Positions 42,301-51,300 of a stretch of 64,000 nucleotides of DNA are shown piece by piece. Every line of letters starts with the position of its first letter. Within the stretch, counting starts at the first letter, position 1. Origin of the DNA: Escherichia coli (GTDB taxonomy: Bacteria; Pseudomonadota; Gammaproteobacteria; Enterobacterales; Enterobacteriaceae); the NCBI RefSeq assembly GCF_003790525.1, contig NZ_CP033635.1; one strand, 5' to 3'. Position numbers: made by a program.

Positions 42301-45300
42301 ACCGCCAAATTCGGCGGTTTTTTATTGCCTGTTAAAAGCTTATTTCTCTGGCTCAACCGGTAAATCTGCTCGTGCGCCCCATTCACTCCATGCGCCGTCG
42401 TACAGTTTCACGTTTGGCACATCAAGTGTCGCGAGTGCCAACAAAACCACGGCTGCCGTTACACCAGAGCCGCAGCTGACGATAATCGGTTTGTCATAGC
42501 TGACGCCGCGACCAAAAAATATCGCATCCAGTTCATCGGTCGTTTTTAGTTCGCCTTCGCGCACCAGTTCCGTCCACGGAACGTTCAATGCACCGGGAAT
42601 ATGTCCGCGACGTAAACCTGGGCGAGGTTCATCAACTTCTGCGTTAAAACGTGCAGCCGGGCGGGCATCAATAATTTGCGCCGTATTTTCATGGCTTGCC
42701 AATAACACATCGGTGACTTTCACCACGGCTTCAGGATTAAACGTGGCGTTAAACTCTCCTTCCGGCAGCTCTACTGCACCTTCTTCTAACAGCAGATCAT
42801 CGCGCTGCCAGCCTGCAAGTCCACCCCCCAGAATCGACACTTTCTCTACACCAAAGGTGCGCAGCATCCACCATGCTCGTGGGGCTGAGAAAAGATTACC
42901 TTCGTCATAGATAATCAGGTGCTTATCCTGGTTAACGCCTAATTCACGCATCGCCACGGCGAACGTTTCCGGGCGCGGCAGCATGTGCGGAAGCGGGGAA
43001 GTGTGATCAGAAAGCGCTTCGATATCAAAAAACACTGCGCCGGGAATATGTCCATTCAGATACTCCTGAGCAACGTTACGATCTTCCTGTCCAGGCGACG
43101 CCATGCGGGCATCGATAATCTGAATTTCCGGGTCATCAATATGTTCGGCGAGCCAGTCGGCTCCTACAAACCATGTCGTGGACATAGGCATCTCCATTTT
43201 TGCCGGGGTTAGGCTAAATTGTCGGATGTTTAGTGAAAAGCGACAAGCAAAAGAGGCTGATTTGGCTGTCTGAGCCACAATTCTCACTAAAATTCGGATT
43301 GTATGGGCGTGATACTGAATTACATAACGTAAATTCTCACGCATAATAATTATTCGACGTTGCTAACGGGCCATTGTGGCAGGGATGAAAAATGAAAAAG
43401 TTACGCTTAGCCGCCTGCATGCTAATGCTGGCGCTGGCAGGGTGCGACAACAACGATAACGCGCCAACAGCGGTGAAAAAAGATGCACCTTCTGAAGTTA
43501 CTAAAGCGGCATCTTCAGAAAACGCGAGTTCAGCAAAACTCTCTGCACCGGAGCGACAGAAACTGGCCCAACAGAGTGCCGGTAAGGCGCTGACATTGCT
43601 GGATCTCTCTGAAGTCCAACTTGATGGCGCAGCCACGCTGGTGCTGACCTTCTCTATCCCTCTCGACCCGGATCAGGATTTCTCGCGCGTTATTCACGTC
43701 GTTGATAAAAAAAGCGGCAAAGTGGATGGGGCCTGGGAGCTGTCAGATAATCTTAAAGAGCTGCGTTTACGCCACCTCGAGCCGAAACGTGATTTGATCG
43801 TTACTATTGGCAAGGAGGTCAAGGCACTCAACAACGCAACCTTCAGTAAAGATTACGAAAAAACTATAACTACCCGCGATATCCAGCCCAGCGTCGGTTT
43901 TGCCAGCCGTGGTTCGCTGCTGCCTGGAAAAGTCATTGAAGGGCTGCCGGTAATGGCGCTCAATGTTAACAATGTCGATGTTAACTTCTTCCGTGTTAAG
44001 CCAGAATCTCTGCCAGCATTTATTAGCCAATGGGAATACCGCAATTCGCTGGCGAACTGGCAGTCAGATAAACTGCTGCAGATGGCGGATCTGGTCTACA
44101 CCGGACGGTTTGATCTCAATCCTGCGCGTAACACCCGTGAAAAATTATTGCTGCCGCTGGGCGATATCAAACCGCTTCAGCAGGCGGGCGTGTATCTGGC
44201 TGTGATGAATCAGGCTGGACGTTACGATTACAGTAATCCCGCGACGCTGTTTACGTTAAGTGATATTGGCGTTTCAGCTCACCGTTATCACAATCGTCTG
44301 GATATCTTTACCCAAAGTCTGGAAAACGGCGCGGCCCAGCAAGGAATTGAAGTCTCTTTATTAAATGAGAAAGGGCAGACTCTGACTCAGGCAACCAGTG
44401 ACGCTCAGGGGCATGTGCAGCTGGAAAATGATAAAAACGCGGCATTACTGCTGGCGCGTAAAAACGGTCAGACAACGCTGCTCGATTTAAAACTCCCGGC
44501 GCTGGACTTAGCGGAATTTAACATTGCTGGCGCGCCGGGCTATAGCAAACAGTTTTTCATGTTTGGCCCGCGCGATCTTTATCGCCCGGGTGAAACGGTC
44601 ATCCTCAATGGTTTGCTGCGTGATGCAGACGGTAAAGCATTGCCCGATCAACCCATCAAGTTAGACGTGATTAAACCCGACGGGCAGGTACTCAGGAGCG
44701 TCGTTAGTCAGCCGGAGAATGGCCTCTACCACTTTACCTGGCCACTCGATAGCAATGCGGCAACCGGTATGTGGCATATTCGCGCTAACACGGGCGATAA
44801 CCAGTATCGGATGTGGGATTTCCACGTCGAAGATTTTATGCCAGAGCGTATGGCGCTGAATCTGACCGGTGAGAAAACCCCGCTAACGCCGAAAGATGAA
44901 GTGAAATTCTCCGTGGTGGGGTACTACCTGTATGGTGCACCTGCTAATGGTAATACTTTGCAAGGGCAACTTTTCCTGCGCCCACTGCGTGAAGCTGTGT
45001 CAGCCTTACCTGGTTTTGAATTCGGCGATATAGCTGCCGAAAATCTTTCCCGCACGCTGGATGAAGTTCAGTTGACGCTGGATGATAAAGGGCGTGGCGA
45101 AGTTTCCACTGAAAGCCAGTGGAAGGAAACGCATTCCCCATTACAGGTTATTTTCCAGGGGAGTTTGTTGGAATCGGGCGGTCGCCCGGTGACGCGCCGC
45201 GCTGAGCAGGCTATCTGGCCTGCCGATGCATTGCCGGGGATCCGTCCGCAGTTCGCCTCGAAATCGGTTTACGATTATCGCACTGACAGCACGGTGAAAC

Positions 45301-48300: not shown

Positions 48301-51300
48301 AATGGCGGGCGACCGGCGCGGCTGAAGATTTGCTAATTGTCAGACCGTAAATGCCTCGCTTGTTAACCAAACGCGGCTGCTGGATAACGCTGGCAGCTGC
48401 GCCATTTCTCCTTTTTCTTGCAGCGTGGGGAGCAGATAAACTCTGGCCTCTACCGCTGCATGAAGTCAATCCCGCACGAGTGGTTGTGGCGCAGGATGGG
48501 ACGCCGCTCTGGCGCTTTGCCGATGCGGAAGGCATCTGGCGTTATCCGGTAACAATCGAAGATGTTTCTCCACGTTACCTTGAAGCGCTGATCAATTATG
48601 AAGATCGCTGGTTCTGGAAGCATCCGGGGGTGAATCCATTCTCGGTGGCGCGCGCAGCATGGCAAGATCTCACTTCGGGAAGGGTTATTTCCGGTGGCAG
48701 CACGCTCACTATGCAGGTTGCTCGTCTGCTTGATCCTCACCCCAAAACATTTGGCGGCAAAATTCGCCAGCTCTGGCGCGCGTTGCAACTGGAGTGGCAT
48801 CTGTCTAAGCGTGAAATTCTGACCTTGTATCTTAACCGCGCTCCGTTTGGCGGTACGTTGCAGGGGATCGGTGCGGCAAGTTGGGCTTATCTCGGAAAAT
48901 CGCCTGCGAATTTAAGCTATTCCGAGGCGGCAATGCTGGCGGTGTTGCCGCAAGCGCCCAGCCGACTGCGCCCGGATCGCTGGCCGGAACGTGCCGAAGC
49001 CGCGCGTAATAAAGTGCTCGAAAGGATGGCCGTGCAAGGTGTGTGGTCCCGTGAGCAGGTAAAAGAGTCAAGGGAAGAACCCATCTGGCTGGCACCCCGA
49101 CAAATGCCGCAACTGGCACCGCTGTTTTCGCGCATGATGCTCGGTAAAAGCAAAAGCGACAAAATCGTTACGACGCTGGATGCCGGTCTTCAACGACGTC
49201 TGGAAGAACTGGCGCAAAACTGGAAAGGACGATTACCACCGCGCAGCTCACTGGCGATGATCGTGGTTGATCATACCGATATGCGTGTTCGCGGCTGGGT
49301 GGGTTCGGTTGATCTCAACGATGATTCACGCTTTGGTCATGTTGATATGGTCAATGCGATCCGATCGCCAGGATCGGTGCTCAAACCGTTTGTTTATGGT
49401 CTGGCGCTGGATGAAGGCTTGATCCACCCGGCATCGCTGTTGCAAGACGTCCCCCGACGCACCGGTGATTACCGACCTGGCAACTTTGACAGCGGTTTTC
49501 ATGGCCCGATCAGCATGAGTGAGGCGCTGGTGCGATCGCTGAACTTACCTGCTGTGCAGGTGCTGGAAGCCTATGGACCGAAACGGTTTGCGGCAAAGTT
49601 ACGCAATGTTGGATTGCCGTTATATTTGCCCAACGGTGCTGCACCGAATCTTTCGCTCATTCTCGGCGGCGCTGGCGCAAAACTGGAAGATATGGCGGCA
49701 GCGTATACCGCGTTTGCTCGCCACGGCAAGGCAGGCAAATTGCGCTTACAGCCTGACGATCCGCTGCTTGAACGGCCTTTAATGTCGTCGGGGGCTGCGT
49801 GGATCATTCGCCGGATTATGGCTGATGAAGCGCAACCCTTGCCGGATGGTGCCTTGCCGCGCGTCGCCCCACTGGCATGGAAAACGGGCACCAGCTATGG
49901 CTATCGTGATGCCTGGGCGATTGGGGTTAACGCTCGCTATGTCATTGGGATCTGGACTGGCAGACCGGACGGCACGCCCGTTGTTGGTCAGTTTGGCTTT
50001 GCCAGCGCCGTACCATTGTTGAATCAGGTCAATAATATCTTACTGTCGCGCAGTGCGAATCTGCCGGAAGACCCACGTCCTGACTCTGTAAGTCGTGGCG
50101 TTATCTGCTGGCCGGGCGGACAGTCTTTGCCGGAAGGTGACAGTAACTGTCGCCGCCGCCTGGCAACCTGGCTGCTGGACGGGAGTCAGCCGCCAACTCT
50201 ATTACTGCCGGAGCAGGAAGGCATTAATGGCATTCGTTTCCCCATCTGGCTGGATGAAAACGGCAAACGTGTTGCCGCTGATTGCCCTCAGGCGCGACAA
50301 GAAATGATAAATGTCTGGCCGCTACCGCTGGAACCCTGGCTGCCCGCATCAGAACGTCGCGCTGTGCGCTTGCCACCGGCCTCGACAATTTGCCCGCCAT
50401 ACGGTCACGATGCACAACTCCCGCTGCAGCTAACAGGTGTGCGCGATGGCGCGATTATTAAACGTTTACCGGGCGCAGCGGAAGCGACTTTGCCGTTACA
50501 ATCAAGTGGAGGGGCAGGTGAACGCTGGTGGTTTCTGAACGGCGAACCGTTAACTGAACGTGGGCGCAACGTGACCCTGCATTTGACGGATAAAGGCGAT
50601 TATCAATTGCTGGTGATGGATGAGGTGGGGCAAATAGCGACAGTGAAATTTGTCATGCAATAGTCTGTTTTGTCCCTGATTGTTGCTTAAACTGGGTTTA
50701 TTTTAAAAAAATGTTACCTTCATCAATAGTCAACGGCTCTGTTGCTCATTATAATCCGCGCCATCTCGTACGCTGGTACAGACAACAACAGAACAATTTA
50801 CAGAGGTAAAAATGGCTATTGAACGTACTTTTTCCATCATCAAACCGAACGCGGTAGCAAAAAACGTGATTGGTAGTATCTTTGCGCGCTTTGAAGCTGC
50901 AGGGTTCAAAATTGTCGGCACCAAAATGCTGCACCTGACCGTTGAACAGGCTCGTGGCTTTTATGCTGAACACGATGGAAAACCGTTCTTTGATGGTCTG
51001 GTTGAATTCATGACTTCTGGCCCGATCGTTGTTTCCGTGCTGGAAGGTGAAAATGCTGTTCAGCGTCACCGCGATCTGCTGGGCGCGACCAATCCGGCAA
51101 ACGCACTGGCCGGTACTCTGCGTGCTGATTACGCTGACAGCCTGACCGAAAATGGTACCCACGGTTCTGATTCCGTCGAATCTGCCGCTCGCGAAATCGC
51201 TTATTTCTTCGGCGAAGGCGAAGTGTGCCCGCGCACCCGTTAATAATTTCGTAAATGCCGCGTGCAAACGTGGCATCCGTGCGCCAGAATTTGTACAATG

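Follow-up and report, generated by a model that had tools for sequence, protein, structure and literature searches.

The yfhM–pbpC operon of Escherichia coli: an abutting stop–start junction and a conserved stem-loop early in pbpC

The present analysis concerns the yfhM–pbpC gene pair in a 64,000-nt stretch of Escherichia coli DNA (contig NZ_CP033635.1 of RefSeq assembly GCF_003790525.1; the whole stretch is referred to as the window, positions counting from its first nucleotide), and in particular the junction of the two genes and a stem-loop located shortly downstream of the pbpC start codon. yfhM codes for ECAM, an alpha-2-macroglobulin (A2M) lipoprotein, and pbpC codes for penicillin-binding protein (PBP) 1C; the annotated gene order around the pair is sseA, yfhM, pbpC, ndk. 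The coordinates given in a preliminary description, 43392–48350 for yfhM and 48351–50663 for pbpC, were exact to the base in the list of open reading frames, where both genes lie on the plus strand and start with ATG, and they are identical to the RefSeq gene boundaries in strain SMS-3-5, which has the same sequence. The identities proposed for the two genes were borne out by Pfam domains, NCBIfam equivalogs and matches to crystal structures. A 7.8-kb query spanning both genes (43100–50900) showed 100% identity to SMS-3-5 and other E. coli strains; among 5426 complete E. coli genomes, it had a match in 5425, on the chromosome every time. The yfhM–pbpC pair of the window is a canonical operon of the E. 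coli core genome, and both genes are intact. Since it is annotated, structurally characterised and part of the core genome, and since its proposed function has been published, the gene pair, its structures and the trap-plus-repair idea of the preliminary description are already known. The query matched 5805 places in the 5425 genomes, which corresponds to a second, partial match in about 380 of them; one genome had no match.

YfhM, a protein of 1652 amino acids, is encoded by an intact reading frame (43392–48350, plus strand) that opens with ATG and ends with a TAA stop codon at 48348–48350; its full translation contains neither an internal stop nor a frameshift. The N-terminus, MKKLRLAACMLMLALAG followed by CD, represents a signal peptide with a lipobox (L-A-G-C, residues 15–18, translation MKKLRLAACMLMLALAGCDNN, encoded at 43434–43445 on the plus strand), which ends with the lipidated Cys18 and is followed by Asp19. 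Aspartate at position +2 of lipoproteins is a signal for retention in the inner membrane. ECAM is anchored in the inner membrane (PMC4498604). Eleven Pfam domains scored above cut-off, namely bMG1, bMG2, bMG3, MG2, bMG5, bMG6, A2M_BRD, A2M, TED, CUB and bMG10; the bait-region domain (PF07703 A2M_BRD, E 3.3e-16) comprises amino acids 759–905 (45666–46106, plus strand). The thioester motif CLEQ, which the preliminary description had called intact, was recovered as Cys1187 to Gln1190 in the translation (46950–46961, plus strand), in the context KAYPYGCLEQTASG and with Tyr1183 and Tyr1185 of the pocket beside it, so that loss of the motif is excluded. The thioester residues carry identical numbers in the ECAM structure paper (PMC4498604), and YfhM aligns over its full length to the ECAM structures 4rtd, 4ziq and 5a42 and to 4u48 from Salmonella. 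The translation also contains the RDDR and ExMY motifs (...IEFRDDRFVAAV... and ...PMVESMYVPQW...), C-terminal macroglobulin (MG)-domain motifs that shield the thioester of ECAM (PMC4498604). With its lipobox, a CxEQ motif in the TED domain, the full array of MG, bait and CUB domains, RDDR and ExMY, and an adjacent pbpC gene, YfhM shows all the tested traits of the PBP1C-associated class of thioester macroglobulins.

For ECAM of strains K-12 and BL21, thioester formation and covalent trapping of protease have been reported (PMC3328433, PMC4498604). By transfer from the 98.6%-identical K-12 protein, the same properties may be assumed for YfhM of the window: cleavage of the bait region by a protease would trigger a conformational change of YfhM, the Cys1187–Gln1190 thioester would become exposed, and the protease would be cross-linked and trapped, as shown in the literature for K-12 ECAM. 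Relative to K-12 YfhM, there is a one-codon deletion (Ser1373) at about 47505–47510, i.e. at residue 1372–1373 or thereabouts, and substitutions cluster at residues 1373–1488, a segment that extends from the region between TED (Pfam match ending at amino acid 1281) and the CUB domain (amino acid 1442 on) into CUB.

PbpC (PBP1C), the product of an intact reading frame at 48351–50663 (plus strand, ATG start), is a membrane-anchored class A PBP of 770 amino acids. It scored 1569 bits against the NCBIfam equivalog NF008414 (cut-off 1121) and 916 bits against TIGR02073 (cut-off 494). The GT51 glycosyltransferase domain (PF00912 Transgly, E 3.2e-52; amino acids 60–226, 48528–49028, plus strand) aligns to the glycosyltransferase domains of the PBP1a structures 4oon and 2oqo, and contains motif 1 as EDRWFWKHPG at residue 84 (E84 being the catalytic glutamate) and motif 2 as GGSTLTMQ at residue 115. 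The transpeptidase domain (PF00905; amino acids 330–519, 49338–49907, plus strand) has its SxxK, SxN and KTG motifs in the form of SVLK at 342, SLN at 396 and KTG at 511, and the C-terminal BiPBP_C domain, which is specific to PBP1C (PF06832, E 1.3e-17), occupies amino acids 687–767 (50409–50651, plus strand). In place of GT51 motif 3, RKxxE, PbpC has GKIRQ (residues 136–140, window 48756–48770), with Gln140 opposite RKINE/RKIKE of PBP1a. Of 81 PbpC sequences from Enterobacterales, Xanthomonadales and Methylococcaceae, 80 have the xKxxQ form, and Gln140 is therefore a trait of the PBP1C family and no defect of this copy. The family-wide departure from the second conserved GT51 glutamate might bear on the unusual activity of PBP1C. 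A sequence search of the PDB yielded no PBP1C structure, the nearest entry being PBP1a (4oon); what its authors describe as the first phenotype tied to PBP1c activity was reported on overproduction only (PMC6131605).

At the junction of the two genes, the sequence reads AGA CCG TAA ATG CCT CGC, the yfhM stop and the pbpC start (48348–48353, plus strand) abutting in the same frame with a spacer of 0 nt, just as the preliminary description had it. The same abutment is found in K-12 MG1655, where the pair lies on the minus strand and pbpC ends, in genome coordinates, at 2647325 and yfhM starts at 2647326. For the 20 nt that precede the AUG of pbpC, the binding energy (ΔG) to the anti-Shine–Dalgarno (anti-SD) sequence is +0.4 kcal/mol, as compared to −6.0 for yfhM, −7.1 for ndk and −6.4 for sseA, and 94% of the in-frame positions inside yfhM score better than the pbpC start. 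Alternative in-frame starts of pbpC are a TTG at codon 4, 9 nt downstream, and then GTGs at codons 44 and 46. The start of pbpC is pinned to the junction, because the stop codon of yfhM is itself the upstream in-frame stop, and initiation at codon 44 or 46 would delete the membrane anchor. Since the two genes share one frame, with a lone TAA codon between them (in one Citrobacter, TAG), readthrough would produce a fusion of 2423 residues; such a protein would probably be topologically meaningless, the N-terminus of PbpC being cytoplasmic.

The junction was compared among 80 pbpC loci, one genome per species. In about 72 of them, pbpC is immediately preceded by an A2M gene on the same strand. 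Among the Enterobacterales, 39 loci have an intact A2M gene, and every one of these encodes CLEQ and has a spacer of 0–13 nt: 0 nt in Escherichia, Citrobacter and Salmonella, 0–3 nt in Mangrovibacter and Pantoea, and 6–13 nt in Buttiauxella, in Franconibacter and in one unclassified genome of the Enterobacteriaceae. In the three genera named first, the 0-nt spacer is kept in 25 loci (the window and 24 species loci), and the anti-SD ΔG of the pbpC start is never better than −3.7 across the 39 loci. Outside this group, about 2.5 kb of extra DNA separates the A2M gene from pbpC in two Lysobacter loci (L052, L062) and 0.9 kb in two others (L053, L058), and no A2M gene was found within 6 kb upstream of pbpC in four Methylococcaceae loci and in L048 and L082. 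Because of these loci, the A2M–pbpC pairing has to be regarded as frequent, not obligatory.

Two entries of the comparative set deserve separate mention. Locus L064 (JAHREJ010000001.1, titled Bacillus subtilis subsp. subtilis SK7B5) contains an A2M–pbpC locus whose products share 49% (PbpC) and 36% (A2M) identity with the E. coli query; these identities match those of the Xanthomonadales loci, and the assembly is most likely contaminated or mislabelled. In L025 (Citrobacter amalonaticus AUH_CA_2023_1, locus 1204–5997), the A2M matches fall into four separate pieces, which reflects either frameshifts due to assembly errors or a pseudogene.

Within pbpC, codons 8–17 form a conserved stem-loop (48372–48401, plus strand; +22 to +51 from the AUG) whose stem has 12 bp, whose loop has 6 nt and whose predicted free energy is −20.1 kcal/mol. 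Its K-12 counterpart (NC_000913.3, 2647304–2647275, minus strand) is intact, two synonymous changes leaving the pairing preserved. When 25 sequences from Escherichia, Citrobacter and Salmonella were aligned without gaps and evaluated against 500 column shuffles, 94.5% of the cells were paired and six of eight pairs had changes on both sides, values which were reached in 0–1 of the 500 shuffles; slid registers of the alignment scored far lower. When the arms of the 25 distinct hairpin sequences were combined, cognate arms averaged −15.0 kcal/mol and non-cognate arms −9.0 kcal/mol. Buttiauxella, Franconibacter, Mangrovibacter and Pantoea have a strong hairpin at the equivalent place, with different RNA and peptide sequences. 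On the sense strand of the A2M and pbpC genes (about 7.2 kb), the element exceeds all other uninterrupted stem-loops in stability in 28 of 40 loci, and in 31 it is one of the three most stable. In 29 of the 34 Enterobacterales loci with an uninterrupted stem, the 5′ edge is found +18 to +24 from the pbpC start, while the interval between the A2M stop and this edge ranges from 19 to 32 nt. A T-rich run (CCATTTCTCCTTTTTCTTG, encoding PFLLFL) comes after the stem in E. coli, the U-tract beginning 3 nt past the stem. An Rfam search at the yfhM–pbpC junction gave no family match. A REP-like (repetitive extragenic palindromic) repeat was considered and dismissed, the stem-loop being single-copy in every E. 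coli genome matched.

The pairing is not independent of the encoded peptide. When the E. coli peptide was recoded synonymously, the mean minimum free energy was −21.5, as compared to −22.3 observed (z −0.22, p 0.40); over 40 loci, the median z was −1.2, with p<=0.05 in 11, and a clear synonymous-site signal was confined to Buttiauxella (z −2.8 to −4.3) and a few others. Since synonymous recodings fold almost equally well, the E. coli stem-loop is largely encoded by the amino-acid sequence, and either the RNA has moulded a weakly constrained cytoplasmic tail, or the stem is an accident of composition. On balance, the stem-loop is probably under selection at the RNA level, a judgement we make with moderate confidence. 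Judging from the lack of an Rfam family and of any mention in the papers that could be searched, it appears to be previously undescribed.

A further structure at the junction was set aside. The 140-nt stretch 48281–48420 folds at −51.4 kcal/mol (z −3.2), and a long hairpin predicted to extend from the 3′ end of yfhM to the start of pbpC (48303–48365, plus strand) buries the surroundings of the start codon. As a general coupling device it was discarded, only 67–80% of cells being paired across the 25 zero-spacer loci, with little covariation; per-species z values from +1 to −4.9 likewise led us to reject its conservation. It is restricted to the Escherichia lineage and is probably not functional.

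From the sequence and its conservation, we consider the following explanation likely: yfhM and pbpC, an intact canonical operon, would be transcribed from a shared promoter, pbpC would be translated by termination–reinitiation, and the stem-loop would adjust the amount of PbpC relative to YfhM. As to transcription, the pair is most likely expressed from a promoter in the 206-bp intergenic region between the divergent sseA and yfhM genes, although the evidence for this step is weak. The preliminary description had suggested looking for a shared promoter upstream of 43392, and one sigma-70 match was indeed found there, namely ATTACA-17-CATAAT at 43319–43347 (plus strand), which agrees with the consensus at 9 of 12 positions and is the best match upstream of yfhM. 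Because promoter-like matches in the region are no more frequent than in shuffled sequences (7 found, 6.2 expected), this weak match is only a candidate. No sigma-70-like site on the plus strand reached the 9/12 threshold within yfhM, and no terminator-like structure was detected between the end of pbpC and a promoter-like site of ndk (50727–50755).

The classical hallmark of termination–reinitiation is a start codon without an SD sequence at the site of a stop codon. The yfhM–pbpC junction shows two traits of coupled genes, in that stop and start are within a few nucleotides of each other and the downstream start has no effective ribosome-binding site of its own. Because there is no SD sequence and the AUG directly follows the UAA of yfhM, ribosomes that have just terminated on yfhM would be the most likely ones to start pbpC. 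The stem-loop, 22–51 nt into pbpC and just past the stretch that a ribosome on the start codon covers, would then probably tune the amount of PbpC relative to YfhM. The translational coupling implied by the preliminary description thereby gains comparative support, an SD-less start and a 0–13 nt spacer being conserved across Enterobacterales; it continues to be an inference, and the conserved hairpin may modulate or even replace simple coupling.

Several observations weigh against this explanation as a whole. Besides the shuffled-sequence result for promoter-like matches, the A2M and pbpC genes of Xanthomonadales are separated by gaps of 75–370 nt, with 0.9–2.5 kb inserted at some loci, and their top-ranked hairpin lies right after the A2M stop. 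Because of these gaps, tight coupling is to be seen as a feature of the enterobacterial lineage and not as a general property of the pair. SD-less genes can also be translated de novo. A genomic SELEX (systematic evolution of ligands by exponential enrichment) peak of the sigma-E holoenzyme inside yfhM (PMC5493296) could mean an additional internal promoter, and the accessible literature contained no experiment showing co-transcription of the two genes or dependence of pbpC translation on that of yfhM.

One of the alternatives with some standing, which we regard as possible but clearly less likely than reinitiation, is that pbpC is translated by de novo initiation: the stem would flank the 30S site and aid initiation at the SD-less AUG, and the abutment of the genes would merely reflect genome compaction. 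This would account for the 5′ edge of the stem being fixed with respect to the start codon and looser with respect to the A2M stop, and the covariation and co-evolution of the arms also favour such an aid. However, the start codons outside Escherichia are our own assignments, the synonymous recodings of E. coli fold nearly as well as the native sequence, and the AT-rich pbpC genes of Methylococcaceae have no such hairpin; moreover, de novo initiation with a stem-loop and coupling are not mutually exclusive. A precedent is fepA, which has a translation-activating stem-loop, or TASL, within its early coding sequence (Jagodnik 2017, as cited in PMC11979758). Like that element, the pbpC stem-loop resides within the first ~50 nt of the coding sequence and directly 3′ of the footprint of the initiating 30S subunit, which is the positional trait of a TASL. 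The comparison made use of the spacing that is reportedly optimal for the fepA TASL. Unlike fepA, pbpC has no SD sequence and directly follows another reading frame, and its stem-loop is known by sequence only. By analogy, the pbpC stem-loop may raise 30S binding and translation in a TASL-like manner. More generally, it is conceivable, if only tentatively, that the stem-loop is a cis-regulatory RNA, acting as a TASL, an attenuator or both, which sets the ratio of PbpC to YfhM and might provide a switch of PBP1C for small RNAs or stress.

The opposite view, that the hairpin has no RNA function and is a by-product of complementary codons for an Arg/Gly/Trp-rich cytoplasmic tail and an Ala/Leu-rich membrane helix, carries comparable weight and likewise appears doubtful. 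The recoding results, for E. coli as well as the median over the 40 loci, speak in its favour, as does the fact that the N-terminal regions of the GC-rich pbpC genes of Xanthomonadales are prone to hairpins, too. On the other hand, the compensatory changes include non-synonymous ones, and the observed count of co-varying pairs (six of eight) was reached in one of the 500 shuffles. All 25 distinct sequences have stems of >=10 bp, with cognate arms pairing better than non-cognate ones, G-U pairs confine the stem-loop to the sense strand, and the Buttiauxella values against synonymous recodings are difficult to reconcile with a by-product.

Somewhat less probable still, and rather unlikely in our view, is a function of the stem-loop as an intra-operon attenuator or as a stabiliser of the 3′ end of yfhM mRNA, by which the yfhM message would exceed the pbpC message and the two genes would be partially uncoupled at the RNA level. 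Intercistronic stem-loops, such as the REP sequence in malE-malF and the puf hairpins, set unequal expression within operons. The pbpC stem-loop shares with these elements the presence of a strong hairpin immediately after the stop codon of the upstream cistron, but it is located inside the downstream coding sequence, is single-copy, and has been recognised from sequence comparison only. It is the strongest hairpin of the operon, and at 19–32 nt past the A2M stop it would escape melting by a terminating ribosome; the T-rich run that follows it in E. coli would fit an attenuator. In at least 7 Xanthomonadales loci, the rank-1 hairpin is found in the spacer, 5–46 nt after the A2M stop, a position which suggests an element tied to the 3′ end of the A2M gene and which would fit an attenuator or stabiliser. 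The reading that the hairpin tracks the A2M stop is weakened, however, by second, pbpC-internal hairpins: many Xanthomonadales loci, and also L048, which lacks an A2M gene, have a hairpin in the 5′ coding region of pbpC, and this leaves homology with the enterobacterial element uncertain. Further points count against attenuation. The U-tract is offset by 3 nt from the stem and absent in some species (L007, L040), and T residues after the stem are not enriched in comparison with synonymous recodings (5.8 vs 5.1 per 12 nt; p<=0.05 in 4 of 30 loci). The terminator scan made no call at the stem-loop, and the Term-seq supplements of PMC7815308 and PMC12207403, the files of which are incomplete, list no 3′ end for pbpC or yfhM. 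A canonical intrinsic terminator was not adopted; a GC-rich hairpin is present, and the U-tract is offset, unconserved and unenriched.

That pbpC is mainly expressed from its own promoter inside yfhM, for instance one of the envelope-stress factor sigma-E, in which case the abutment would be no sign of co-expression, is very unlikely: the sigma-E SELEX study does list pbpC and sseA as flanking candidate targets of its peak within yfhM (PMC5493296), but the peak (old K-12 coordinate 2649866) maps near the 5′ end of yfhM, at about 43800–43900 of the window by approximate conversion and thus upstream of pbpC by more than 4 kb, the plus strand has no sigma-E-like motif in 43100–44300, no plus-strand sigma-70-like site within yfhM reached 9/12, and the sigma-E regulon entries available from PMC2731931 include neither yfhM nor pbpC. 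For want of a sigma-E-like motif, we also rejected a sigma-E promoter that would precede yfhM or lie within its 5′ end.

Known RNA elements occur elsewhere in the window. Rfam matches comprised ryfA at 41842–42146 (minus strand), beside the small toxin gene timP as annotated in SMS-3-5, as well as GlmY at 5094–5241, the iscRS stability element at 34477–34586 and SroE at 54987–55078, all three on the plus strand.

The association of macroglobulins of the CxEQ class with pbpC, noted in the preliminary description, is documented in PMC3328433, PMC3735191 and PMC4498604, all of which cite Budd et al. 2004. According to the hypothesis given in the same three papers, the macroglobulin traps proteases that enter a damaged periplasm, and PBP1C repairs the peptidoglycan. 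The physiological trigger, described as unsettled beforehand, was not settled by any study retrieved in our literature search. If the pbpC hairpin is functional, it could explain a level of PBP1C that differs from that of ECAM, and it would be a natural site for conditional control of PBP1C; if it is regulatory, the stem-loop would offer a testable handle on when the trap-and-repair module is used.

The closest known system is the K-12 pair yfhM (b2520)–pbpC (b2519), which agrees with the pair of the window in gene order and orientation, in its neighbours (the divergent sseA upstream, ndk downstream) and in the TAAATG junction. The K-12 206-bp sseA–yfhM intergenic region is 100% identical to that of the window. 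YfhM of the window is 98.6% identical to K-12 YfhM (1653 amino acids), with 22 substitutions and K-12 Ser1373 as the one residue missing; PbpC and its K-12 counterpart share 98.8% identity, with 9 substitutions. The A2M of Salmonella enterica (SaA2M, 4u48) and the adjacent pbpC likewise share the domain architecture, the CLEQ motif and the 0-nt spacer between stop and ATG; they differ in being only ~82–83% identical and in an altered hairpin sequence (CGUGGCCGCUGG...CUGGCGGUCGCG), in which the pairing is kept. The class represented by MagD of Pseudomonas aeruginosa and YfaS of E. coli has the macroglobulin fold and the periplasmic location in common with YfhM. Its members, however, lack the lipobox cysteine and the CxEQ thioester, and are encoded in a six-gene mag operon and not beside pbpC (PMC3735191), whereas YfhM of the window possesses the lipobox cysteine, the CxEQ motif and the pbpC neighbour.

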